A DNA stretch of 64,000 nt from Myxococcales bacterium UBA1660. GTDB taxonomy: Bacteria > Myxococcota_A > Polyangia > Polyangiales > Houyiibacteriaceae. Location: contig DCLA01000010.1 of NCBI GenBank assembly GCA_002320815.1, positions 95,991 to 159,990 of the forward strand. Direction: 5' to 3'. How positions within the stretch are numbered: the stretch's first letter is position 1; each line of letters starts with the position of its first letter. Position numbers and translations under genes: made by a program. The notes below the pieces were generated by a model. That model searched no databases. It was not told the DNA's origin and saw only the letters and a list, made by a program, of their open reading frames with translations. Of this stretch, positions 15,761-43,747 are shown piece by piece.

Positions 15761-16000
15761 CTACTCGAGCCGCCGGCCGTCGGGGAGGAGCCGCGGATCG
15801 GGCATCGTCCCCTGGGAGGCGAGCCGGTAGCGCTCGCAGCGCTCGTAGGCGCCCTCGCGGTAGAGCGATTGGATGACCCGCAGGGGGCTGTCCGAGCGGA
15901 AGCGGGGGAACATCGGGCAGCGATCGACGTTGGGGCAGCTCGTGGCGCTCCATGACGTGTGCTCCCATCCGAACCCACCGCCAGGGATGGGGTCACTCAT
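15761..16000 (-). CDS. Small Cys-containing hypothetical protein (79 aa)
   Basis: ATG at 16000 gives 'MSDPIPGGGFGWEHTSWSATSCPNVDRCPMFPRFRSDSPLRVIQSLYREGAYERCERYRLASQG...'. Only this terminal part of the 15761-16915 track ORF looks protein-like; the upstream part runs antisense through the tRNA. Confidence 0.5.
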   Translation of the reverse strand: MSDPIPGGGFGWEHTSWSATSCPNVDRCPMFPRFRSDSPLRVIQSLYREGAYERCERYRLASQGTMPDPRLLPDGRRLE

Positions 16001-16065
16001 TTGGGTGAGGTCCCAGAAATGCGCAGTGCCGATGCCCTCGTTTAGGGTCGACACGTGCCGATCCG

Positions 16066-16362
16066 GTGCCATTCTCCGGCCCCATGAGCCCGTCCGAACT
16101 GCCGGCCCATCCCGAGAGCGAAGCCGCGATGTGGCACTACGTCCGGGGTGTCGAAGCGCGCCTGCGCGCCGACCTCCGGGGCACGCGCATGCAGCGCGAG
16201 ATCGACGTCGCCCGAAGCCTGGAGCGCTTCTATGCCGCCGCCGGCCGCCCCTGGCGCGCGACCACCGTGGGCCGCATCGCCGAACTCCTCGAGCGCGCCC
16301 AGACCGGCGTCCTGGCCGTCCAGCAGGTCCGCCTGCCCCGCACCCCCGAGCAGCGCTGGTAG
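16066..16362 (+). CDS. Small hypothetical protein
   Basis: Sequence is 'MSPSELPAHPESEAAMWHYVRGVEARLRADLRGTRMQREIDVARSLERFYAAAGRPWRATTVGRIAELLERAQ'. The composition is helical and non-repetitive. The start may be the ATG at 16084. Confidence 0.45.
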   Translation: MPFSGPMSPSELPAHPESEAAMWHYVRGVEARLRADLRGTRMQREIDVARSLERFYAAAGRPWRATTVGRIAELLERAQTGVLAVQQVRLPRTPEQRW

Positions 16363-16399
16363 CGCCGCCCCGAAGAGTGCACGCCAGCGCCGAACTTCC

Positions 16400-16428
16400 T
16401 TGACGACCCACCCCCGAAGTCGTATCTC
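16400..16428 (+). promoter_or_regulatory. Putative sigma70-like promoter of tRNA-Gly
   Basis: TTGACG (16400-16405), a 17-nt spacer, then TATCTC (16423-16428), ending 12 nt before the tRNA 5' end. The same cTTGAC -35-like hexamer precedes the other two tRNA loci. Confidence 0.4.
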
Positions 16429-16440
16429 CGTCCCCCTCAC

Positions 16441-16513
<73 letters not shown>

Positions 16514-16524
16514 CCGAGAAAACA

Positions 16525-16563
16525 GGCCCGCCAGGCATCCGCCGGCGGGCCGTTTCGTTTTCC
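16525..16563 (+). terminator. Hairpin plus T-rich tract after tRNA-Gly
   Basis: GGCCCGCC (16525-16532) pairs with GGCGGGCC (16544-16551), followed by 'gtttcgtttt'. Confidence 0.5.
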
Positions 16564-17151
16564 CGGGACCGAGATGGTCCCTTGAAATCCGGTAATGCCT
16601 GCGGACGACATCACGGCAGGGGCCCCAGTGGGCCGAGTAGGGACCAGCTTCGTCACGCAATCGCATCATGGTGACATCCCGCCACGGAATGGACCGCCCC
16701 GCGTCCCTGCATCGAGCCGCTGACCGGCCTCTGTGCTCAATCCAAGTAGGCCGCCAAGGCGTTAGTATCCGGCGCAAGCTGCGGGGCGCCGTGAACGGCG
16801 ACCTGGAGCTGGTCGACGATGTGGAGCGCATAAACGGCGAGTATGTTCTTCTACACGGATGTCGAAGATCTACTGAAAGGCTCAAGGAGACGCAGCGGCA
16901 TGGGTTCTCCATCAACCGCCTAGCTAGCTAGCTGCCTTTGCCGGACTCAGCCGCGGGTTCCACAGCGAGCTGCGGGCTCAGATAGTCCCGACGCTGGCCA
17001 CCGTCGAGATGCCCGCGGCCGCGCTACAAGTGGCCCCCTGCGACCTCTTGTGCCCTTCGACCAAACCGTGGGCTCGCACCGGCCGTCTTGTCGCCCGCGT
17101 GCTGGAGGCTGTCTTTCCGGTGGGCGATTGCGCTATCGTAAGCCGTCGTCC

Positions 17152-17658
17152 GTGCACATTACCCAGCAGAAGGAGGAGTTCTCTGTGGCGTACGTTCACG
17201 CGATCGCCGCCAGCGCGGGCTGCGCTGTCGACCGACCGAAAGTCGACAACGAGAGCGTGGACGTGGAGGTTCGAAGCAACCTCAGCTACCAGAAGTTCGA
17301 CAACCCTCGGATCGACCTTCAGCTCAAGTGCACCGCCTCGCTGCAGGGTCACGCAAAGGGCGTGTTGAAGCACAAGATTCCCGTCCACAACTATAATGCA
17401 CTTGTCTCGACACGACGGGTCATTCCTCTGCTCTTGGTTGTCGTCCACGTGCCCAAATCGGTTGACCGGTGGATCCATCAAGACAATCGGATGCGCGCCG
17501 ATCTTCGGTTCTGCGCCTACTGGTGCGCATTTAGAGGGAAGGCGCGGTCAACTAACTCGACGTCGGTGACCGTGAGCATCCCCCGCTCGCAGGTCTTCAC
17601 GCCTTCCGTGATCCGCTCGTGGATGAAGCGCGTGGGCGACGGCGAGTTTCTGCAGTGA
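17152..17658 (+). CDS. DUF4365-like PD-(D/E)XK (restriction-endonuclease-fold) protein
   Basis: GTG at 17152 gives 'VHITQQKEEFSVAYVHAIAASAGCAVDRPKVDNESVDVEVRS...PRIDLQLKCTAS'. This has the layout I associate with DUF4365: N-terminal helix 'Q..E..s.AYv.aia', a D...D.E segment, then a 'QLK' strand. The track start at 17050 would add an unlikely Arg/Gly-rich leader. Confidence 0.65.
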   Translation: MHITQQKEEFSVAYVHAIAASAGCAVDRPKVDNESVDVEVRSNLSYQKFDNPRIDLQLKCTASLQGHAKGVLKHKIPVHNYNALVSTRRVIPLLLVVVHVPKSVDRWIHQDNRMRADLRFCAYWCAFRGKARSTNSTSVTVSIPRSQVFTPSVIRSWMKRVGDGEFLQ

Positions 17659-18788
17659 CGGTGAGAGGCGAGTCGTTCGGAATCAAGCCCGGGGAGCTAC
17701 TAGCGCTTCTCGCGCGGCGTGGTTGGGATCGCGTCCAGCCGGGTAGGCTGACGTCCATTTGGGCTCGAGACGGTGTACGTATGCTGGTTCCCGTTGACGA
17801 TACGGCGGACGACTACGAGCGAAGGGTTCGGGATGTACTCCAAGACCTTGCCGCCAGAGACGGTCTAGACCTTCGGCGCCTCCGGCACGAAGTCGAAGAA
17901 TCCATCTTCGACAGCCTCAGTCTGCGGGTGGCTGCGCACTCGGTCGCGGGCACCACCACTCTCGAAGAGGGGCGGTCCCTGCTGATGGTTGCGCGCCAAG
18001 CCTGGAACTCGGGGGCTCGCCTCTTCGCGCGTAGATCGCCAGACGGTTTCTCTCAGGACGATGCGAAGGCTTTCGTTAGGCGGGTGAGGCTGGGGCAGAC
18101 GGAGCGTGGGAGCTATATCGTGCGGACGCTGGCGCCGGTGATCGAACTCCCCGAGCCCGGTCGACAGTTCTCCAACGAACCTACCGTCAGCCCCACTCAC
18201 ACGATAACAAGATTCTTGGCCGGGTCTTTAGGGGCTCTCCGGGAAGTCGTGCCGGAACTCCAGGTCGACGGCCTCGACTTGTCTCGCGCCGGGGCATTCC
18301 TGGCGACCAAGGGTGTGACGGCCGAGATTTGTAGAGCGATCAGCCGCGCTGTTGAAGAGCCAGGTGCTGAGAGTCTGCAAGCCGAGGTGAAGACCTCCGA
18401 CGTTGCTGCGCCTCCACTTGTCGGCGTTGCTTCGTTCACAGTTGATGATGCCCCGGCGCTACGAGCGGTAGCCAACGTGATCGCAGACCCACCACTCGCG
18501 GCGAGGCTTGGAGTGGAGGGGAAGGTCATAAGGCTGCATCGACGCCCCGGGGCCGAGCATGGCTTTGTGCGAGTGATGGCACTGGTCGATGGGCGAACGC
18601 GCCAGGTCAGCTTCTCATTAGGGGTGGAGGACTATGAGGTTGCGGTCGAAGCGCACAGGGCGATGAAGACCGTCGCGGTCTACGGTCCGCTGGAAACGCG
18701 GGGAACTGAGCTGTGGATCTCGAACCCCGCGAGCTTCCTCGTCATGGCAGATAGGTCAGAAGAGCTGCCCTTCGAGGAGAACGAGTAG
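17655..18788 (+). CDS. Hypothetical protein (377 aa), translationally coupled to the DUF4365-like gene
   Basis: GTG at 17655 overlaps the upstream TGA (GTGA). The sequence is non-repetitive and globular-looking ('IKPGELLALLARRGWDRVQPGRLTSIWARDGVRMLVPV...'), with no catalytic motif I recognise. Codon usage matches the island. Confidence 0.6.
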   Translation: MTVRGESFGIKPGELLALLARRGWDRVQPGRLTSIWARDGVRMLVPVDDTADDYERRVRDVLQDLAARDGLDLRRLRHEVEESIFDSLSLRVAAHSVAGTTTLEEGRSLLMVARQAWNSGARLFARRSPDGFSQDDAKAFVRRVRLGQTERGSYIVRTLAPVIELPEPGRQFSNEPTVSPTHTITRFLAGSLGALREVVPELQVDGLDLSRAGAFLATKGVTAEICRAISRAVEEPGAESLQAEVKTSDVAAPPLVGVASFTVDDAPALRAVANVIADPPLAARLGVEGKVIRLHRRPGAEHGFVRVMALVDGRTRQVSFSLGVEDYEVAVEAHRAMKTVAVYGPLETRGTELWISNPASFLVMADRSEELPFEENE

Positions 18789-18875
18789 TCATCACATGGA
18801 TGGGCAATTAGGTCCTAGCCCACGGCTCCACATGGACAGGTCACACCCTCGTGGTACCTGACGGTTGGCCACGAA

Positions 18876-19928
18876 GTGAGAAAGGACTCCACGAAAAGAC
18901 GCGCACATCGAATCCGTCGGGCGCGGAAGGCCGCGCGCCACCAGGAGCGGCGCCACTGGAGTCGCGAGCTTTATCGCGATTCTCAGCGGGCACTGTCCCG
19001 ATGGCTGCGGGAGAATGCGCCGATCACTCGGTCGGTCGCTGCGCGACACCATCATGAGACCGTTCGCCTCGAGGGTGTGCTGTGCCTCGCATCGAGGCCC
19101 GGCCCAACACTGAAGGAACTGCTGAAGCTCGACCTCCAACTACCCTCATGCCCGACCTTGGTCGTGGTCGACCTTCGGGGGGTCAAGGCCATCGATGCCG
19201 CGGCGATAGTCTACCTCTGCTCTCGCATTCGGAGAATCGGTCGGCGGCCGCACACCCAGGTGGCGGGCTTCTACCCGGTGGCTGACGCGCCGACCCGGCT
19301 TCTGATGGAAGCGGGGTTCGACGACTTCCTCAAGTCTGAGCAGGTGCCTAGGCGAGCAACCGGGGACTTCCGGTCCGTGAAGCTGGTCGTGGGGCGTCGT
19401 CGGAATGAAAGAGTGAATCCCGACGTTGCGGCAGAAGTGGGGGGATTTATCAAGGCGCTGCAGCCATCCATGAGCGTGATCGAGCACGACTCGCTGACTC
19501 TAGCAGTGAGCGAATGCTTGGAGAATGTCCGGGTCCACGCGTATCGGCCACGAATCGAGTACGGTTGGTACGTCGTCGGGGTGCACGACCCGGACCGTCG
19601 AGTCTCGTCTGTCGCTATCCTTGACGCCGGAAGGGGTATCTTCGCGAGTTCCACCGAGAACGCTCCGCTGAGCGACACGAAGGGCAACCGGAAGGTTGCT
19701 CTGCTAGAGACTACGAAGGGGGTACGAACAGCCTCGATGTCGCCTGAGCGCGGCAAGGGGCTCAGCTCCCTACGCGAGATGGTCTGCGACCCCACCTGTG
19801 GGGGCTCCTTCACGGTCGTGTCGTCCGGCGCCATGGTCCGTTGGGTGACTGGCGACGAACCGGATCGTATAGTAACGGTCCCCGATGTCGGTGGGACGAT
19901 CGTAGTGGTCGAGGTCCCGGACCCATGA
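18876..19928 (+). CDS. Fusion protein: STAS-like domain plus SpoIIAB/RsbW-like GHKL ATPase/Ser kinase
   Basis: The STAS-like segment is 'PTLVVVDLRGVKAIDAAAIVYLCSRIRRI...LLMEAGFDDFL'. The GHKL N-box is 'LAVSECLENVRVHAY' (compare SpoIIAB 'VSEAVTNAIIHGY'). The G1 box is 'VAILDAGRGI' and the G2 is 'ERGKGLSSLREM'. The N-terminal 50 aa are Arg-rich and the true start is uncertain. Confidence 0.7.
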   Translation: MRKDSTKRRAHRIRRARKAARHQERRHWSRELYRDSQRALSRWLRENAPITRSVAARHHHETVRLEGVLCLASRPGPTLKELLKLDLQLPSCPTLVVVDLRGVKAIDAAAIVYLCSRIRRIGRRPHTQVAGFYPVADAPTRLLMEAGFDDFLKSEQVPRRATGDFRSVKLVVGRRRNERVNPDVAAEVGGFIKALQPSMSVIEHDSLTLAVSECLENVRVHAYRPRIEYGWYVVGVHDPDRRVSSVAILDAGRGIFASSTENAPLSDTKGNRKVALLETTKGVRTASMSPERGKGLSSLREMVCDPTCGGSFTVVSSGAMVRWVTGDEPDRIVTVPDVGGTIVVVEVPDP

Positions 19929-20269
19929 CGAGCACCTACATTCATATCGCCAAGAACTATAGCCCCCGTCTCGGCGGCCGATATGTTCGCGACGGGAAGT
20001 TCTCGGGCGAGGACTTCCGAGATAGGGTCCTGCGCCCGGCGTTCCTCGCGAACGACAAGGTCTCGATGAACATCGATGGCACTGAAAACATCAGCGCTTC
20101 GTTCTACGAGGAGGCGCTTGGCGGTCTTGTAGCGGAGTTCGGGCTGAAGGCCGTTCTAGAGAAGCTGACGATCGTAGCGGTGGAGCGTGGCTACCTCGTA
20201 CCTCGCCTGCTCCGCTGGATGGAGCAGCGTGAGGCTCAGCGTGTTGCAAAAACCGCAGCCAACGCTTAG
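19925..20269 (+). CDS. DUF4325 (STAS-like) protein
   Basis: ATG at 19925 overlaps the upstream stop (ATGA). 'FRDRVLRPAFLANDKVSMNIDGTENISASFYEEALGGLVAEFG' fits the DUF4325 pattern ('v.ldf.gv..issSF.dE.fg.l'). Confidence 0.65.
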   Translation: MTSTYIHIAKNYSPRLGGRYVRDGKFSGEDFRDRVLRPAFLANDKVSMNIDGTENISASFYEEALGGLVAEFGLKAVLEKLTIVAVERGYLVPRLLRWMEQREAQRVAKTAANA

Positions 20270-20289
20270 GCCACGGCAGCGACTCCGCT

Positions 20290-20892
20290 ATGGCATCGCC
20301 CATCATCTCTGCCCTCGCGCTCGTCGTTTCGATTGTCGTAGCGTTCCTCACTTTGCGTTGGGCTGGACGAGCGCCATGGCATTCCCTCGTCGGCGAACAA
20401 CTCAATAGGATCATTCACAGGACCGTTGACGACTGGCACGCGATGGACTCACTCCTTGCGTGGCCCGTGAAGGATGCCCGGGAGGAGCTGGCGCAAAGGC
20501 TCAGCAACCTGCGCGAGAGCGTCGACCGAAAGCTCAAGGCTCTTGAGCTTCTGTACCCCGAGCTATCGAAGCCCCTCATGAGGGCAAGACAACGGATGCT
20601 CGAGACATGGGACGATCGGTTTTTCTCCTCCGATGAAGCGACGCTTCCCGAACGGGACCGCGAACGTCTAAAGACAGCGTATCGAGACGCAACGACAGAG
20701 TTCCTGGCGGCAATCCGTGCCTTCGCCGAGACGATAGGTGACCCGGGACGACTAACAAAGTCTCGGCTCGGCAAGGGCTTTGCAGCCTTGCTCGTGGCAT
20801 CATCTTTGGTCGGGGCCGGATTCTGGCTCGGGCTGACCTACGGTGTGGACGACGAGCGCGAGCCTGCCGCGTCGAGGGTCTCACCGTCCTAG
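20290..20892 (+). CDS. Membrane protein with N- and C-terminal TM helices flanking a helical soluble region
   Basis: Starts 20 nt after the DUF4325 gene. The TM helices are 'IISALALVVSIVVAFLTL' and 'FAALLVASSLVGAGFWLGLTY'. The middle roughly 130 aa are charged and helical. No family recognised. Confidence 0.6.
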   Translation: MASPIISALALVVSIVVAFLTLRWAGRAPWHSLVGEQLNRIIHRTVDDWHAMDSLLAWPVKDAREELAQRLSNLRESVDRKLKALELLYPELSKPLMRARQRMLETWDDRFFSSDEATLPERDRERLKTAYRDATTEFLAAIRAFAETIGDPGRLTKSRLGKGFAALLVASSLVGAGFWLGLTYGVDDEREPAASRVSPS

Positions 20893-20981
20893 GGCCCGCG
20901 TCGCCAGTGTCCAGGTCCGAGCTTGGCTAGACCTCTGTCGCGATCACCCAGGGACACGGCTTTGCCCAGACATTTGGAATC

Positions 20982-21173
20982 CTACCGAATACCTCGATGA
21001 ACTCCTAAATAGTGCTTCTCCGCAAGCGCTACGCGGTGGCCGAACTGGCGCGCACTGAGAAACGCTATCACCCATCGAAGACCCCGGGCGTGCGTTGCAC
21101 AGGCTTCGAAGCCTCTTCCGGACGACGCTCGGTGCTCCAAAGTTCTCGTCCCCGTCGGTGGGATGGGCGTCAT
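20982..21173 (-). pseudogene. Possible C-terminal remnant of a tyrosine recombinase/integrase
   Basis: 'ARGLRWVIAFLSARQFGHRVALAEKHYLG' aligns by eye with the integrase box II region (hDLRHtfAs.l...G....i...LGHs....t..Y.h). It retains the Arg, the His/Trp position and the terminal Tyr. No N-terminal or core domain is present. Confidence 0.35.
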
Positions 21174-37478: not shown

Positions 37479-38313
37479 TCAGAAGCGGCCGATGACGACG
37501 GTACAGTTGTCGTCGCCGCCGGCGTCGTTGGCGAGCTGGATGAGCTCCTGACAGAGCTCCTGCGGGGCGCGGCCCTGGCGGAGCTCGGCCAGCTTGGCGG
37601 CGATGACCTCTTCCGAGACCTGACCGCTGAGGCCGTCGCTGCACATCATGAGGATGTCGCCGGGCTCGAGCTCGGCGGCGGTCAGATCGACGCTCACGTC
37701 GGCGTCGCCGCCGCCGATGGCGTTGGTCAGGATGTGTCCGAAGCGCGGGTGGGTGTCCGGGAAGCCCCGCTCCTTGAGGGCCTCGGCCATCGTGTGATCC
37801 CGGGTGAGGCGCTGGAGGGTGTCGCCGCGCATCAGGTAGCCGCGGCTGTCGCCGACGTGGACCATGTAGAGCGCGGGCCAGACCACGTAGGCCACCGTGA
37901 GCGTGGTGCCCACCGACTCGCCGAGGCCCTTGCGGGCGGCCACCTTCCGCAGGTGGTTCTGGGCGTCGACGACGGCGTCGCGGAGCCCCTGGGAGAAGCT
38001 CTCCAGGACCTCCTGGGAGGGCCGGGTGTTGTTCGGCAGCCAGGGGAGGATCGAGAGCGCGTGGTAGGCGAGGGCGTCGATAGCCACCGCGCTGGCCAGC
38101 TCGCTGCGGGAGTGGCTGCCGATGCCGTCGGCGACCGCGAGGAGGTAGTTCCGTTCCCGGCTGACCACCGAGGACCCGTCGGGGACCTCGAAGCTGGAGC
38201 CCACGATGCGCAGGGTGCGGTCGAGCTCGGTCACCAAGTACTGGTCCTGGTTTCGCTCACGCTGCAGGCCGATGTCGGTCTGCCCGGCGATGACCGGCTC
38301 GGGCGCGTCCATC
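37479..38313 (-). CDS. PP2C-family Ser/Thr phosphatase
   Basis: 'GQTDIGLQRERNQDQY', 'AVADGIGSH', 'MMCSDGLS' and 'AGGDDNCTVVIGRF'. The start is taken at ATG 38313; a GTG at about 38408 would add a Pro/Thr-rich N-terminal extension. Confidence 0.85.
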
Positions 38314-38508
38314 TCGGTGGTACCCGAGTGTTCGCGGAGGGTCCGCAGGGTCGGGTCGGAGAAGCCGTCCCGCGGGGGCGGGGTGGGAGTCGGGCGGTCG
38401 TCGGTCACGGCGCGCCAAGGATGCAACAGGCCGCCCGTGGTTGACCAGCGTCCATCGACGGGTATTCGCGGGCGCGGCCGGGCCCGACAAGGGCTATGCT
38501 GCCGTCCG

Positions 38509-40389
38509 ATGAAGGCGCTCCTCAAGGTCGGCTACGGCTGCAACGACCACTGCACCTTCTGCCACACCCTCGACATCCGCGAGATCCAGGGCAGCGACGC
38601 CGAGGTGCGCGCCAAGATCCGCCGCGCCAAGGAGCTGGGCCACACCATGGTGGTCCTCAGCGGCGGCGAGCCGACCATCCGCCCGGAGCTCATGGCCTGG
38701 GCGGAGTACGCGGCCAGCCTGGACCTCGACTTCGGCCTGGTGACCAACGGGCGCCTGTTGGCCTACCCCGACGTGATCGAGGAGCTCCTCGGGCACCGCC
38801 TGCGCTACGTGTACCTCTCGCTCCACGGCGGGTCGCGGCGGGTCCACGACCTCCTGGTGCGCGCCCGGGCCTTCGACGAGACCTACGGCGCGCTGAAGAA
38901 CCTCTCCGGGACCGGGGTCGACCTGCACGTGAACTGCGTGGTGACCCGGCGGAACGTGGACAAGCTGCGCGAGCTGGTCGACGCGGTGCTCCCGTACCCC
39001 GACGCCACCCTGAAGATGTCGATGGTCGAGCCCAAAGGGGGGGGCGACAAGCACTTCCAGCGGATGATGCCGCGCATCGCCGAGGTGGCCGCGAAGGTCG
39101 CCGACGCCATCCGCTACGGCGAGGCCCAGCGGGGCGACGCGCCGGGTCCCCACTTCCGGCACGGGGCCATCCCCCTGTGCCTACTGCCCGGGCTCGAAGA
39201 CCGCTTCGACGACCTCAAGACCCACCGCTACGCCACCATGGTCGAGGTGGGCGAGGCGGACTACTTCCCCGTCGACGACCGCAACAAGCTCCAGCCCGAG
39301 CCCTGCGCCGGGTGCGCCCTCGCCGGGCCCTGCCCGGGGCTCTACCGCGGCTACCACGAGGTCCACGGCGCCGACGAGCTGCGCCCGGTCCCCAGTGGGC
39401 CGCGGGCGAACAGCTACGACTACGTGCTCGAGGCCCTCGTGCCCGATCGGCTCGGCAGCGACCAGTGCCCCCTCCGAGACGGCGGCCTGGGCGTGACCCC
39501 CTGGGATCGGGGCCGGCAACTCTTCGTGCGCCACGGCGGCAAGCTGGCCCGCTACCGCGCGCCCACCCGCGACTTCTCGGACGTGGCCATCGAGACCACC
39601 AAGCACGAGGTGGGGCAGATCTACTACGACGTCTCCGGCAAGGTGGCCCCCGACGACTTCGCCCGGGACCTGGTGCCGCTCCAGCGCGCGGCGGTCTGCG
39701 GCGACTGCCCGGAGCGCCCCCACTGCGTCGGGCTCCACGAGCCCCGGCTGGAGCCGCTCTTCGCGCGCGACGAGGCCGAGCTCGAGGCGCTCCTCGGGGC
39801 CCTCGAAGGCGACGTGCTCGACGTGGGCTGCGGCGACGGCCGCTCGTTGCCGGCCATGGCCGAGGCGGCGCGCGCGGGGCGCCTCCGGTATCTCGGCGTC
39901 GACCCGGACGTGGAGGCCCTGGCGTCCCTCGGGCGGGCGCACTCTTGGGCCCGCTTCGCGACCGGCACCGCCGAGGCGCTGCCCCTGGGGCCCGCCGAGC
40001 GCTTCGACCACGTGTTGCTGCTCCGGAGCTGGAATCACCTGCGGGAGCCCGTCGCCGCCGCGGAGCACCTCTGGGGCCGGCTCCGGCCGGGCGGGACCCT
40101 GCTGGTGGTCGACGACGTGCCTTTCGGGCTGGCCCGGAGTCGGCGCGCGACCCGGCGCGCGCAGGCCGGTTCGGCCATCTGGGAGCATCTGCGCAACGAC
40201 GACGCCGGCGCGGCCCTGGCGCGCCTTCGGAGCCTCGGCGGAGCGCTGGTGCTCCGGCGCGACGTGGGCCGGGACACCAGCAACCGCTGGATCCTCCGCT
40301 TGCGTAAAGCGCCCGAAGCGGAGCGTGCGCACGGCCAATCGGCGGCCAACTCTGATATGGAAGACGCCGAGCCCCTGCAGACCGGATGA
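38509..40389 (+). CDS. Radical SAM enzyme with Cys-rich auxiliary region, fused to a C-terminal class I SAM methyltransferase
   Basis: ATG at 38509. The CxxxCxxC motif 'GYGCNDHCTFCH' has its Cys codons at 38539, 38551 and 38560. 'VVLSGGEPT' is present. Cys clusters are 'PEPCAGCALAGPCPG' and 'AAVCGDCPERPHC'. Methyltransferase motif I 'VLDVGCGDGRSL' is at about 39814-39849. Confidence 0.85.
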   Translation: MKALLKVGYGCNDHCTFCHTLDIREIQGSDAEVRAKIRRAKELGHTMVVLSGGEPTIRPELMAWAEYAASLDLDFGLVTNGRLLAYPDVIEELLGHRLRYVYLSLHGGSRRVHDLLVRARAFDETYGALKNLSGTGVDLHVNCVVTRRNVDKLRELVDAVLPYPDATLKMSMVEPKGGGDKHFQRMMPRIAEVAAKVADAIRYGEAQRGDAPGPHFRHGAIPLCLLPGLEDRFDDLKTHRYATMVEVGEADYFPVDDRNKLQPEPCAGCALAGPCPGLYRGYHEVHGADELRPVPSGPRANSYDYVLEALVPDRLGSDQCPLRDGGLGVTPWDRGRQLFVRHGGKLARYRAPTRDFSDVAIETTKHEVGQIYYDVSGKVAPDDFARDLVPLQRAAVCGDCPERPHCVGLHEPRLEPLFARDEAELEALLGALEGDVLDVGCGDGRSLPAMAEAARAGRLRYLGVDPDVEALASLGRAHSWARFATGTAEALPLGPAERFDHVLLLRSWNHLREPVAAAEHLWGRLRPGGTLLVVDDVPFGLARSRRATRRAQAGSAIWEHLRNDDAGAALARLRSLGGALVLRRDVGRDTSNRWILRLRKAPEAERAHGQSAANSDMEDAEPLQTG

Positions 40390-40399
40390 TGAGGAGTCG

Positions 40400-40885
40400 A
40401 TGAGCGAGCCCCTGGAAGCCACCCCCCACGCCTTCGTCCGCGCGGATCGCGAAGACGGCAGCGTCTCCTTCGTCGTCGACGAGTCGGTCTACCCGCTCGA
40501 GGCGATCTACGGCGCGACCTTCACGTTCCTGGACCGCTGCTTCGTCTTCCTCGGCCGGGAAGGGGAGGGCCAGGTGCGGGTGGTGCTGAGCGCCAAGAAG
40601 CTGCCCATCGCCGACGACGAGCTGCGCGGCTGGGTCGGGGAGCTGGCCAACGAGCTGCTCGCCTGCGCCTGGCGCGGCCGCATCCTCGAGCAGAACCGGG
40701 CCACCATCGAGGCGGTGACCAGCCAGGCCATCGGCGGCGCCATGGGGCCGCCCAGCCTGGACGAGCTGGAGGACTTCGACTTCAGCGAGGAGCCCTTCGA
40801 GGACCCGCTCGGCATCGCGATGAGCTGGGAAGAGAAGTACGGCAAGAAGGACAAGAGCCAGGGCGGCGAGACGGAGGGCACGTGA
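40400..40885 (+). CDS. HxsD-like small protein with acidic C-terminal tail
   Basis: GAGGAG Shine-Dalgarno at 40391-40396, ATG at 40400. 'VYPLEAIYGATFTFLDRCFVFL...WVGELANELLACAWRGRILEQNRATIEAV' resembles, from memory, the His-Xaa-Ser system protein HxsD family. It shares a 'GELAN' motif with the next ORF. Confidence 0.6.
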   Translation: MSEPLEATPHAFVRADREDGSVSFVVDESVYPLEAIYGATFTFLDRCFVFLGREGEGQVRVVLSAKKLPIADDELRGWVGELANELLACAWRGRILEQNRATIEAVTSQAIGGAMGPPSLDELEDFDFSEEPFEDPLGIAMSWEEKYGKKDKSQGGETEGT

Positions 40886-41109
40886 AGGCCCTGCGCTTCG
40901 CCAAGGACCTCTACGTCGGCGAGCAGGTCGACGCGGCGGTGAAGGTCTACGGTCGCTTCGGGACCCTGGAGCTCGCCGAAGACGAGGACGCCTGGATCGT
41001 GACCGTCGACGCCCAGACCGACGCCCGCACCCGCCGCCTGGCGGGCGAGCTGGCCAACTACGCGCTGGGCCTGACCATCCGGCAGCACCGCGGGGAGGGC
41101 GCGTCGTGA
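40882..41109 (+). CDS. Small protein (75 aa), partial paralog of the preceding HxsD-like protein
   Basis: GTG at 40882 overlaps the upstream TGA. The sequence is 'MKALRFAKDLYVGEQVDAAVKVYGRFGTLELAEDEDAWIVTVDAQ...RRLAGELANYALGLTIRQH'. It is coupled at both ends. Confidence 0.55.
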   Translation: MKALRFAKDLYVGEQVDAAVKVYGRFGTLELAEDEDAWIVTVDAQTDARTRRLAGELANYALGLTIRQHRGEGAS

Positions 41110-42608
41110 GCGAACGACTCTTCGGGGCGATGACGCCCGAGACCTTCGACGCTCGGCAGCCGGCGTTCTTCCGGTTCCGGCAGCTCCCCATGGCTCCGGA
41201 CAAGGTGGTGCTGAGCAACCTCGAGGGGCGCTGGCTGGTCCTCGATCGACCGGACTTCCTGGCCTTCGCCCAGGGCCAGGTGAGCGAGGGGACCCCGCTC
41301 TTCCAGAAGCTCCGGGAGCGCAACTTCCTCCGGGCCTACTACGACGTCCCCGCCGCGACGGAGATGGTCCGCGCCCGGCACGAGTTCGTCGGCGCGGGCC
41401 CCAACCTGCACATCCTGGTGCTCACCCTCCGGTGCAACACCACCTGCGTCTACTGCCACGCCTCCCGGGCGAACATGGACCAGGTCGACACCGACATGAC
41501 GGTGGAGATCGCGGAGAAGTCGGTGGACTTCATCCTGCAGTCCACCAACCCGGCGGTGACCATCGAGTTCCAGGGGGGCGAGCCCCTGGTGCGCTTCGAC
41601 CTGCTCCAGCACGTGGTCCGCTACGCCAACGAGCGGAACGAGGCCATCGGCAAGGAGATCGACTTCACGCTGGTCACCAACCTCTCCCTCATGGACGAGG
41701 AGAAGCTGGACTGGCTCATCGAGAACCGGGTGCAGATCTGCACCAGCGTCGACGGCCCCCAGGACGTCCACGATAAGCAGCGGAAGCTGCCCAAGGCGAG
41801 CGCCCACGGCGAGGCCGTGAAGTGGATCGGGCGCATCAACGAGCGGTACGAAGAGCTCGGCCTGGACCAGACCCTCTACCACGTGGAGGCCCTGGTCACG
41901 ACGACCCGGCCCATCCTCGACCGCTGGAAGGAGCTGGTCGATCTCTACGTGGACCTCGGGTGCCGCGCGCTCTTCCTGCGGCCCCTCGACCCCTTCGGCT
42001 TCGCCGACAAGACCAAGCGGCTCATCGAGTACCCGCGCGCCGACTACGTCACGTACTACCGCAACGCGGTGGACTACATGATCGAGCTCAACAAGGGCGG
42101 CGTGGAGATCCTGGAGCGCTACGCGGCGATCTTCCTGACGAAAATCCTCAGCGGCGTGGACCCCAACTTCCTCGACATCCGGCAGCCCTCGGGCGCCGGC
42201 ATCGGGCAGCTCGCCTACTCGTACGACGGGAAGATCTTCACCTGCGACGAGGGGCGCATGCTCCACGAGATGGGCGACGACACCTTCGAGATCGGGCACG
42301 TGATGACCTCGAAGTACCGCGACGTGGTCGGCCACGAGGCGGTCCGCGCGGTGGTCATCGCCAGCCAGCTCGACGGGCAGCCGGACTGCGTCCACTGCCC
42401 CTACCAGCCCTACTGCGGGATCCCGCCGGTGCACTCGCACCGCATCCAGGGGACCCTGCTCGGTCGCATGCGCGAGAGTTCCCTGTGCGCCGTCCACAAA
42501 GGCATCCAGGACTACCTCTTCGAGAAGCTCGCCAGCGGCGACGAGGAGACCCTCCGAGTCCTCGAGAAGTGGACCACCATCCGCCCCCGCGACCACTTCG
42601 TGCAGTAG
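41106..42608 (+). CDS. Radical SAM/SPASM-domain maturase, HxsB-like
   Basis: GTG at 41106 overlaps the upstream TGA. An N-terminal domain of about 100 aa contains 'FFRFRQLP...VLSNLEGRWLVLDRPDFLAF'. The CxxxCxxC motif 'LTLRCNTTCVYCHA' has its Cys codons at 41433, 41445 and 41454. The C-terminal motif 'CVHCPYQPYC' (Cx2Cx5C) is SPASM/twitch-like. Confidence 0.8.
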   Translation: MSERLFGAMTPETFDARQPAFFRFRQLPMAPDKVVLSNLEGRWLVLDRPDFLAFAQGQVSEGTPLFQKLRERNFLRAYYDVPAATEMVRARHEFVGAGPNLHILVLTLRCNTTCVYCHASRANMDQVDTDMTVEIAEKSVDFILQSTNPAVTIEFQGGEPLVRFDLLQHVVRYANERNEAIGKEIDFTLVTNLSLMDEEKLDWLIENRVQICTSVDGPQDVHDKQRKLPKASAHGEAVKWIGRINERYEELGLDQTLYHVEALVTTTRPILDRWKELVDLYVDLGCRALFLRPLDPFGFADKTKRLIEYPRADYVTYYRNAVDYMIELNKGGVEILERYAAIFLTKILSGVDPNFLDIRQPSGAGIGQLAYSYDGKIFTCDEGRMLHEMGDDTFEIGHVMTSKYRDVVGHEAVRAVVIASQLDGQPDCVHCPYQPYCGIPPVHSHRIQGTLLGRMRESSLCAVHKGIQDYLFEKLASGDEETLRVLEKWTTIRPRDHFVQ

Positions 42609-42661
42609 CGGCCAGGGGACGACGCCGCCACGACGCACCGAGCGGCCGAGCCGCGCGGGGG

Positions 42662-42876
42662 GCCGGAGGAGGAGCGCGAAGCGCGACGACGCACCGAGCG
42701 GCAACGCCGCGAGCTCTTCAGGTTTATGGGGAGGGCGAGGAGCGATGTCGCGACGAGCCGCGCGGGGCAGTGCCGGAGGAGGAGCGCGAAGCGCGACGAC
42801 GCACCGAGCGGCGAAGCCGCGAGCTCTTCAGGTTTATGGGGAGGGCGAGGAGCGATTCACTCGCGACGAGCCGGGG
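42662..42876. repeat. Non-coding tandem direct repeat, 110-bp period, two full copies plus a partial upstream copy (about 42619-42661)
   Basis: 'gccggaggaggagcgcgaagcgcgacgacgcaccgagcggc(a/g)a(c/a)gccgcgagctcttcaggtttatggggagggcgaggagcgat' begins at 42662 and again at 42772. Each copy is followed by 'tcgcgacgagccg(cgc)gggg'. The period is not a multiple of 3. Confidence 0.9.
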
Positions 42877-43747
42877 GATTTTTCAAAATCCCCCCAACAG
42901 CTCTAGCATGATCGCCGCGGCCGAGATCGATCCGCTCCAGGCAGAGGCCGTGGGCGGGGGCGGTGGGGCCGCCTTCCTCGCGGCGGCCCTCGGGGCCCAG
43001 GAGGCGGGCCACCTGGTCGGGGTTCATCCGGTGGCGGCCCACGTCGAGCAGGGTGCCGGCGAGGATGCGCACCATGTTCTTCATGAACGCGGTCCCCTCG
43101 ACCTCGATGGCCAGCCGGTCGGGGCGGCCGGCCCAGTCGGGCACCACGTCGATGCGGGTCATCGTGCGCTCGGTGTTCTCGCGGTCGTCGCTGGCCGCGC
43201 GGAAGGCGCGGAAGTCGTGGGTGCCCACCAGGTGCGCCGCCGCCTCGCGCATGCGCTCGAGGTCCAGGTAGTCGGCCACCACCTCGCGGCGCTCCGCGCG
43301 CGGCACGTCGGGTCGCGAGTGCTGGGGGCCCACCCGCCAGGTCGTGCGACGCAGCAGCGGGTCGGTGGTCTCGCCCACGACCACCTGGTAGCGGTAGAGC
43401 TTCCCCGCGGCGTCGTTCCGGGGGTCGTAGCGACGATCCACCGCACAGGCGCTGCGGACGGAGACGTCTTCGGGGAGGAGGCCGTTGAGCCCCAGGGTGT
43501 AGGCCTTCTCCGGGAGCTCGCGGTCGCAGGCGAAGCTCACCACCTGGCCGCGAGCGTGGACCCCGGCGTCGGTGCGGCTGGCGCCCCGCATCCGGGAGGT
43601 CTCCAGGCTCAGGGCCTTCAGCGCCTTCTCCAGCGTGGACTGGACGGTGCGGACCTTCGGCTGCGCCTGCCAGCCATGGAAGTCCGTCCCATCGTAGGAG
43701 ACGATCAGGCGCACGCCGTAGGGCAGGCGCGGCTCGCGACGGGCCAT
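42857..43747 (-). CDS. truA: tRNA pseudouridine(38-40) synthase
   Basis: ATG at 43747 begins 'MARREPRLPYGVRLIVSYDGTDFHGWQAQ'. The catalytic motif is 'RTDAGVHARGQV'. The C-terminal tail ('...GILKNPPARRE') is encoded by the palindrome/repeat region. Confidence 0.9.
   Translation of the reverse strand: MARREPRLPYGVRLIVSYDGTDFHGWQAQPKVRTVQSTLEKALKALSLETSRMRGASRTDAGVHARGQVVSFACDRELPEKAYTLGLNGLLPEDVSVRSACAVDRRYDPRNDAAGKLYRYQVVVGETTDPLLRRTTWRVGPQHSRPDVPRAERREVVADYLDLERMREAAAHLVGTHDFRAFRAASDDRENTERTMTRIDVVPDWAGRPDRLAIEVEGTAFMKNMVRILAGTLLDVGRHRMNPDQVARLLGPEGRREEGGPTAPAHGLCLERIDLGRGDHARAVGGILKNPPARRE
42873..42894. repeat. Perfect 10-bp-arm palindrome
   Basis: GGGGGATTTT-tc-AAAATCCCCC. It lies at the 3' edge of the tandem repeat, inside the last codons of truA. 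Neither side has a T-run, so it is not a canonical intrinsic terminator. Confidence 0.85.

Follow-up and report, generated by a model that had tools for sequence, protein, structure and literature searches.

A four-gene myxobacterial cassette with a radical SAM/methyltransferase fusion: the probable enzyme half of a split type-4 His-Xaa-Ser maturation system

This study focused on a four-gene cassette at positions 38509–42608 of a 64,000-nt stretch of DNA from Myxococcales bacterium UBA1660 (assembly GCA_002320815.1, contig DCLA01000010.1, positions 95,991–159,990, forward strand), the whole of which is called the window here. The cassette specifies a radical S-adenosylmethionine (SAM) enzyme fused to a methyltransferase (gene i), two small HxsD-family proteins of 161 and 75 aa (genes ii and iii), and the maturase HxsB (gene iv). 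It probably represents one half (enzymes and adaptors) of a split type-4 myxobacterial His-Xaa-Ser (HXS) maturation system, with the precursor peptides encoded elsewhere in the genome. The family memberships of the proteins, the linkage of their genes among relatives, precursor genes in the same genome and purifying selection on the cassette are matters of observation and carry this reading; by analogy with known systems and from the linkage, the window enzymes would act on those precursors, and the pairing of adaptors, the order of steps and the chemistry set out below are likewise proposals. An earlier, sequence-only reading had recognised the cassette and its relatedness to Hxs systems, and both observations stood. 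Its interpretation, that the substrate was unknown, did not, because the precursor HxsA4 occurs in most orthologous loci and twice, along with HxsC4, in the same genome.

Family memberships and layout of the cassette

Judged from its sequence, gene (iv) is a genuine HxsB. It matches TIGR03978 over its full length at the level of an equivalog (538.2 bits, E = 1.6e-161; curated NCBIfam cut-offs, in bits, are given with each model, here 370), is 35–37% identical to annotated proteobacterial plasmid HxsB proteins over 92–97% of its length, and already bears the name HxsB at NCBI (MAQ16530.1). The radical SAM motif is CNTTCVYC, and PF04055 is matched at 53.7 bits. An N-terminal domain of about 100 aa and a Cx2Cx5C element, DCVHCPYQPYCG, are also present, and the earlier comparison of this protein to HxsB is borne out. 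The 75-aa product of gene (iii) exceeds the cut-off of the model for HxsD-like proteins (NF038315, 70.9 bits, cut-off 41, E = 7.5e-20) and has the GELAN motif in common with gene (ii), as had been noted. Gene (ii) itself reaches 40.7 bits against the HxsD model TIGR03976 (E = 2.3e-10), under the cut-off of 50, and a precomputed PF27806 HxsD match is on record for it. Its resemblance to HxsD holds as that of a distant relative, below that cut-off, and profile searches support the relatedness of the cassette to HxsB and HxsD far beyond chance.

The 161-aa protein ends in an acidic extension, LDELEDFDFSEEPFEDPLG, at residues ~113–150 (window 40736–40850). NCBIfam coverage of this protein is limited to the general HxsD model, below cut-off, and leaves the extension uncovered. 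In 36 orthologues the tail is nearly invariant, with the consensus GAMGPPSLDxLxDFDFSxExFxDPLGIAxSWEEKxGKK, and is equally conserved whether or not an HxsA4 gene lies adjacent. Conservation is higher here than in the HxsD-like core, and an invariant Ser-Trp within the tail recalls the Ser-Trp at the C-terminus of all HxsA4 precursors.

By sequence comparison, gene (i) is a homologous but distant paralogue of HxsC. Its top NCBIfam matches are HxsC4 (NF038332, 99.6 bits, cut-off 500) and HxsC (TIGR03977, 63.3 bits, cut-off 267.9), both far under the cut-offs, and it does not qualify as an HxsC equivalog. Over residues 7–294 there is a full-length alignment with HxsC4 of the same organism (27% identity, E = 4e-26), one that takes in the C-terminal Cx2Cx5C...DELxPV motif. 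PF04055 is matched (79.9 bits, E = 3e-22), and the second part of the protein matches Methyltransf_11 of Pfam (47.9 bits, cut-off 21.2, E = 2e-12) as well as Methyltransf_12 and Methyltransf_25. The features previously picked out from the sequence, namely the radical SAM motif (C11-x3-C15-x2-C18), two further cysteine groups (C224/C266/C269/C275 and C320/C397/C400/C406) and methyltransferase motif I (VLDVGCGDG, residues 435–443), were all confirmed: the 11 cysteines and motif I, with D438, G440 and G442, are invariant in 62 homologues. In the AlphaFold model of the gene (i) product (pLDDT 90.4), the predicted fold of the N-terminal half matches the radical SAM enzymes BlsE, SkfB and SuiB, and that of the C-terminal half matches class I small-molecule methyltransferases (3h2b, Rv2258c and RebM). 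In a fold search with this model all neighbours were generic radical SAM or class I methyltransferase structures, and no solved structure spanning both halves was found (best TMq 0.33). NCBIfam has no specific model for the fusion, which is annotated only as "radical SAM protein"; it is nonetheless real and conserved, and lies, as had been claimed, outside the canonical HxsD-B-C-A description.

HxsC-like modules were also seen fused to other domains, e.g., to a PrxQ-type peroxiredoxin (498 aa, locus L053, 8508–10004) and to a B12-binding radical SAM module (772 aa, L087, 16796–19114), so that the methyltransferase fusion is one of several in this paralogue family.

The four genes are coupled as first described, and their coordinates, the Shine–Dalgarno sequence in the 10-nt gap and the GTGA overlaps at 40882 (ii/iii) and 41106 (iii/iv) were all verified. 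The NCBI model of gene (iv) begins at ATG 41130 (492 aa), 21 nt past the stop of gene (iii), and the coupling is tight under either start. For gene (i), the NCBI model (MAQ16533.1, 727 aa) begins 101 codons upstream (38206–38508) of the conserved MKAL start of the orthologues, and is probably too long. The cassette has a GC content of ~72% and sits among the housekeeping genes hemE, asd, truA and a PP2C phosphatase gene. Since genes on the opposite strand bound it on both sides, PP2C phosphatase upstream and truA downstream, it forms a self-contained unit. A search for sigma-70-type promoters and intrinsic terminators was negative, which is uninformative at 72% GC in Myxococcota, and the region 38000–43200 gave no structured-RNA match in Rfam.

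All four genes are under purifying selection. The ratios of nonsynonymous to synonymous substitution rates (dN/dS) are 0.20–0.42 against the two nearest relatives (L006 and L007), which are 77–86% identical at the protein level and have flanking PP2C, vWA and truA genes in common with the window, and the cluster cysteines and SAM motifs of the cassette enzymes are all conserved.

Precursor genes in orthologous loci and at a second locus

Homologues of the fusion enzyme fall into 932 sequence clusters (E <= 1e-10), the best 120 being full length at 55% identity or more, and relatives are encoded by at least 168 species-level genomes. Neighbourhoods were compared in 80 kept loci from Myxococcota species genomes, with up to 10 kb fetched on each side; this set comes entirely, or almost entirely, from Myxococcota, with Nannocystaceae, Polyangiales, Sandaracinaceae, Kofleriaceae and other groups represented. 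The 161-aa gene accompanies the fusion gene in 55 of the 80 (within 500 nt in 34), the 75-aa gene and HxsB in 49 each, and all three in 46. At some loci 1–7 kb of inserted genes separate the fusion gene from the other three.

Forty-three loci have enough sequence 3' of HxsB to be informative about a precursor, and in 33 of these a small gene (79–238 aa) lies directly after HxsB or, in a few, before the 161-aa gene. Its product has an acidic leader (..LPSFxK....L...QREISDRA..AD..) followed by QHCS, then 8–59 His-Gly-Ser (HGS) units and a terminal Trp before the stop, and matches NF038313, "His-Xaa-Ser repeat protein HxsA4", at 80 bits (cut-off 55). Usually downstream of this is a radical SAM enzyme of ~340 aa, which is HxsC4 (NF038332, 598 bits), and many loci carry further HxsC-like paralogues. 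The contiguous order in relatives is fusion enzyme, 161-aa protein, 75-aa protein, HxsB, HxsA4, HxsC4. Repeat number in HxsA4 is highly variable across species, spanning the full range given above, and at one locus (L066, 6877–8037) two HxsA4 genes, of 35 and 59 units, stand side by side.

The window has no such gene. As had been noted, no His-Xaa-Ser open reading frame lies in or beside the cassette: across the 64 kb, none of the six frames has three or more H-x-S within 40 aa, nor does the window hold a run of three or more HxS units. A profile of the HxsA4 leader, searched in six frames including the region of the 110-nt repeat described below, gave a best E of 1.3, with a positive control at 65 bits. 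HxsA4 and HxsC4 are both absent from the window, where gene (i) reaches no more than the 99.6 bits given above against the HxsC4 model, and L006 and L007 likewise lack a local precursor or leader remnant.

A search with an HxsC4 sequence led to the missing components. It identified protein P0163 (MAQ14724.1, CMN30_07995) on contig NZUS01000048.1 of the metagenome-assembled genome (MAG) GCA_002703625.1, a Tara Oceans "Sandaracinus sp." with CMN30_ genes, and in the same MAG are proteins 100% identical to gene (i) (MAQ16533.1, CMN30_17280) and gene (iv) (MAQ16530.1). At this second locus (L087) two HxsA4 precursors (NF038313) and HxsC4 (NF038332) score above the type-4 cut-offs. Both precursors have an acidic leader of the form ..DEWExALPSFEKDAAGALSxEHRxVSERALRNADE.. 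and a C-terminal Trp, and the gene of the second shows translational coupling to HxsC4. P0163 was found in 23 contigs, in numbers and from sources like those of the window proteins, and samples ERZ908085 and ERZ28654914 yielded assemblies of both loci. GC content is 0.719 at the second locus and 0.717 in the window, and the tetranucleotide correlation between them is 0.993, compared with 0.988 between the two halves of the window and at most 0.963 for other myxobacterial loci. As the second locus is more than 144 kb from either end of its 337.7-kb contig, the two loci must be at least ~144 kb apart. The type-4 components, contiguous in most relatives, are spread here over two contigs. The earlier reading had stated that it would be refuted by a conventional precursor in orthologous loci that was merely unannotated here. 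In essence this is what was observed, as the precursor did turn up in relatives; in this genome it is not unannotated but relocated.

The count of pure HGS units in copy 1 of HxsA4 at the second locus differs between metagenomic contigs (L086–L091), at 6, 10 or 12, a difference that may reflect variation in the population or an artefact of assembly. The locus adjoins sterol- or hopanoid-type genes (L087, 1–7901), including a squalene-hopene-cyclase-like gene, HMG-CoA reductase and a 1034-aa squalene epoxidase/SQS_PSY fusion.

Proposed mechanism and competing explanations

A known relative is the canonical HXS antiphage system of Pseudomonadota, HxsD-HxsB-HxsC-HxsA (Li et al., Nat Commun 2026; PMC13128918). 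In that study, HxsA of E. coli was matured by HxsB and HxsC, with N-terminal processing and a +8 Da shift on SHRSS, and HxsC bound HxsD. The myxobacterial system resembles it in having an HxsB maturase, HxsD-family proteins of small size, an HxsC-type radical SAM enzyme in addition to HxsB and a tandem His-Xaa-Ser substrate. The two systems also differ. The canonical order is D-B-C-A with HxsA adjacent, whereas the window has C'-D'-D''-B and no HxS repeat in any frame of its 64 kb; instead of one HxsC there are at least three HxsC-type paralogues, one fused to a methyltransferase domain that the canonical system lacks; two proteins are of HxsD type; the substrate consists of a short leader followed by (HGS)n-W, unlike canonical HxsA; and the genes are chromosomal, in a housekeeping context, and so far known only, or almost only, from Myxococcota. 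A closer match is the NCBIfam type-4 set (HxsA4 NF038313, HxsC4 NF038332, HxsD-like NF038315 and HxsB TIGR03978), annotated for example in Sandaracinus amylolyticus: genes (iii) and (iv) pass their models, as do two HxsA4 and HxsC4 in the same genome, but here the set is divided between the two distant loci.

More broadly, radical SAM/SPASM maturases of ribosomally synthesized and post-translationally modified peptides, such as PqqE (with PqqD), SkfB and SuiB, work with small partner proteins. Like the system described here, they combine a radical SAM core and auxiliary cysteine clusters with a small companion and a leader-plus-core precursor. To our knowledge, no described member of the PqqE, SkfB or SuiB type has a fused class I methyltransferase and a second Cx2Cx5C domain.

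In the mechanism we propose, the substrates would be the two HxsA4 precursors of the second locus; that these exist is plain, and the role given to them is a putative one. The N-terminal domain of HxsB would bind the leader, and HxsB would carry out radical chemistry on the His and Ser residues of the repeats. The fusion enzyme, a paralogue of HxsC carrying two auxiliary 4-Cys sites, would perform a second radical step, and its class I methyltransferase domain would add a SAM-derived methyl group. By analogy with the HxsC–HxsD complex of E. coli, the two small HxsD-family proteins would be partners or adaptors of the HxsC-type enzymes. The window enzymes, together with HxsC4, would in this way modify the (HGS)n-W core of HxsA4.

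Several points weigh against a split maturation system. The link between the two loci comes from sequence comparison, and MAG bins can be chimeric, though composition, shared samples and shared assembly argue otherwise here. The fusion enzyme is far below the HxsC and HxsC4 cut-offs, and a paralogue of this kind could have a different substrate. The chemistry of the canonical system is known only as the +8 Da shift. Modules are also shuffled among relatives: the 161-aa and 75-aa genes occur with HxsA4 but no HxsB at L044 and L048 (at L044 with HxsC4 as well), L072 and L079 have HxsC4 without HxsA4, and about 25 fusion-enzyme loci have no Hxs genes in the fetched sequence, so that the partnership need not be obligatory for every component.

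It is unlikely, at a lower level of belief, that the cassette is independent and has some other substrate: the acidic tail of the 161-aa protein (as self- or partner-modification), the 75-aa protein or a small molecule, with the methyltransferase acting on that product. The absence of a precursor within 64 kb would fit this, as would the lack of a local HxsA4 at 10 of the 43 informative loci, the frequent occurrence of the fusion enzyme without neighbouring Hxs genes, and the tail itself (...DPLGIAxSWEEK...), with its conservation beyond that of the HxsD core and its Ser-Trp like the HxsA4 C-terminus. However, the same tail is just as conserved beside HxsA4, which does not suit a replacement substrate and fits a docking motif equally well; the proposal that it substitutes for a precursor is weakened on this account. 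HxsB is, moreover, a full-length equivalog of a peptide maturase that is partnered by HxsA4 in relatives, and this genome encodes two HxsA4 genes. A role in antiphage defence, like that of HxsD-B-C-A in E. coli and Klebsiella, which blocks phage DNA entry, is still more doubtful. HxsB and HxsD-family components are common to the experimentally demonstrated system (PMC13128918), and a low-GC island with a DUF4365 protein lies 17–22 kb upstream in the window, but HxsA4 is a small leader-plus-core peptide with no visible hydrophobic signal sequence, unlike the HxsA effector, and NCBIfam matches it to a repeat-protein model only. The surroundings are those of housekeeping genes, which speaks against a defence island, the genes are conserved across at least 168 Myxococcota species, and canonical HXS is 99.7% Pseudomonadota in the published survey (PMC13128918). 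PADLOC matches were confined to generic models for radical SAM (viperin-type) and methyltransferase (mad2, type II MTase) proteins, with no complete defence system among them. That the cassette is a decaying remnant left by deletion of HxsA4 and HxsC4 is strongly disfavoured and highly improbable. A 110-nt tandem repeat does occupy the position of these genes in relatives, but the four reading frames are intact, the catalytic cysteines and SAM motifs are conserved, dN/dS has been 0.2–0.4 since the split from L006 and L007, which have the same precursor-less layout, and intact HxsA4 and HxsC4 are found elsewhere in the genome.

Returning to the split type-4 system, it may be speculated, with limited confidence, that it is a vertically inherited pathway with no part in defence, in which long (His-Gly-Ser)n-Trp peptides would become a heavily cross-linked and methylated product that is, e.g., metal-binding or redox-active. 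The fusion would then supply a SAM-derived carbon, which could explain the +8 Da of canonical HxsA (+C, -4H), and the DPLGIAxSWEEK tail would be a docking element for precursors at a separate locus. The curated NCBIfam models of HxsA4, HxsC4 and the HxsD-like protein, and the NCBI name of gene (iv), were already available. A literature search on HxsA4, HxsC4 and HGS repeats found no paper in the library searched. What is new is that a conserved, uncatalogued fusion is recognised as belonging to the system, that an adaptor has an invariant acidic tail, and that the layout in this lineage is split. What the E. coli antiphage system has yielded on the action of HxsB and HxsC on His-Xaa-Ser motifs is a mass shift of +8 Da only. 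The myxobacterial variant, with a simpler and highly repetitive substrate, (HGS)8-59-W, and separable enzymes, one of them fused to a methyltransferase, could make the reaction tractable to mass spectrometry after expression in a heterologous host. It also illustrates that an orphan maturase cassette can have a distant precursor, a case that neighbourhood-limited (RODEO-style) precursor searches would miss.

Feature coordinates and minor observations

Table 1. Features of the cassette (window positions), of the gene (i) product (residues) and of the second locus (L087 positions)
Feature	Location	Strand	Details
Gene (i), HxsC-type radical SAM and class I SAM methyltransferase fusion	38509–40389	+	626 aa; stop TGA 40387–40389
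Spacer (i)/(ii) with GAGGAG Shine–Dalgarno	40390–40399	+	10 nt, read from sequence
Gene (ii), HxsD-family protein with acidic C-terminal extension	40400–40885	+	161 aa; ATG start at 40400
Gene (iii), HxsD-like protein, NF038315	40882–41109	+	75 aa; GTG start, GTGA overlaps on both sides
Gene (iv), HxsB, radical SAM/SPASM maturase	41106–42608	+	GTG 41106 start, 500 aa; NCBI start ATG 41130, 492 aa
HxsC-like module, complete	gene (i) residues 1–294		CxxxCxxC and first 4-Cys group
Linker domain	gene (i) residues 295–420		second 4-Cys group
Methyltransferase domain	gene (i) residues 421–600		class I
HxsA4 copy 1	L087 8183–8473		NF038313, 94.6 bits; QHCS(HGS)12, 13 HxS units
382-aa protein	L087, between the HxsA4 copies		no assigned function
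HxsA4 copy 2	L087 9696–10004		NF038313, 79.3 bits; QHCS(HGS)16, 17 HxS units
HxsC4	L087 10001–11050		NF038332, 582.4 bits; GTGA overlap with copy 2 stop
Three HxsC-like radical SAM genes	L087, beyond HxsC4		

The 110-nt tandem repeat (2.1 copies, 92% match) at 42647–42873 fills the interval from the end of hxsB to truA, which is convergent with it; in relatives, HxsA4 and HxsC4 stand at this place. Rfam gave no match to the repeat. Within the window its 35-nt core is confined to this site, and it recurs, 1–3 times, in further Tara contigs from this population, among which the intergenic length at this site varies from 139 to 517 nt.

A secreted protein of ~190 aa with a twin-arginine translocation (Tat) signal (GRRxxL) and the motif FQVDVLRRD...FVANxGDG is conserved beside the fusion gene in 25 of the 80 loci, and an alpha-ketoglutarate-dependent (aKG) HExxH peptide beta-hydroxylase (TIGR04267, 101 bits) is found there in 20, often with another HxsC-like radical SAM gene (e.g., L035 7736–9492 and L024 7106–9844, among loci L009–L082). 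The Tat-signal protein and the hydroxylase of these Nannocystaceae-type loci were considered as partners or substrates for the window enzymes and were set aside, the window having no homologue of either. Their varied arrangements suggest a functionally linked second sub-module.

Elsewhere in the window, GC content falls from ~0.73 to 0.63 at ~16000–21000, a stretch that carries the gene for the DUF4365 protein (17050–17658) and several open reading frames without a Pfam match, and is probably a horizontally acquired island.

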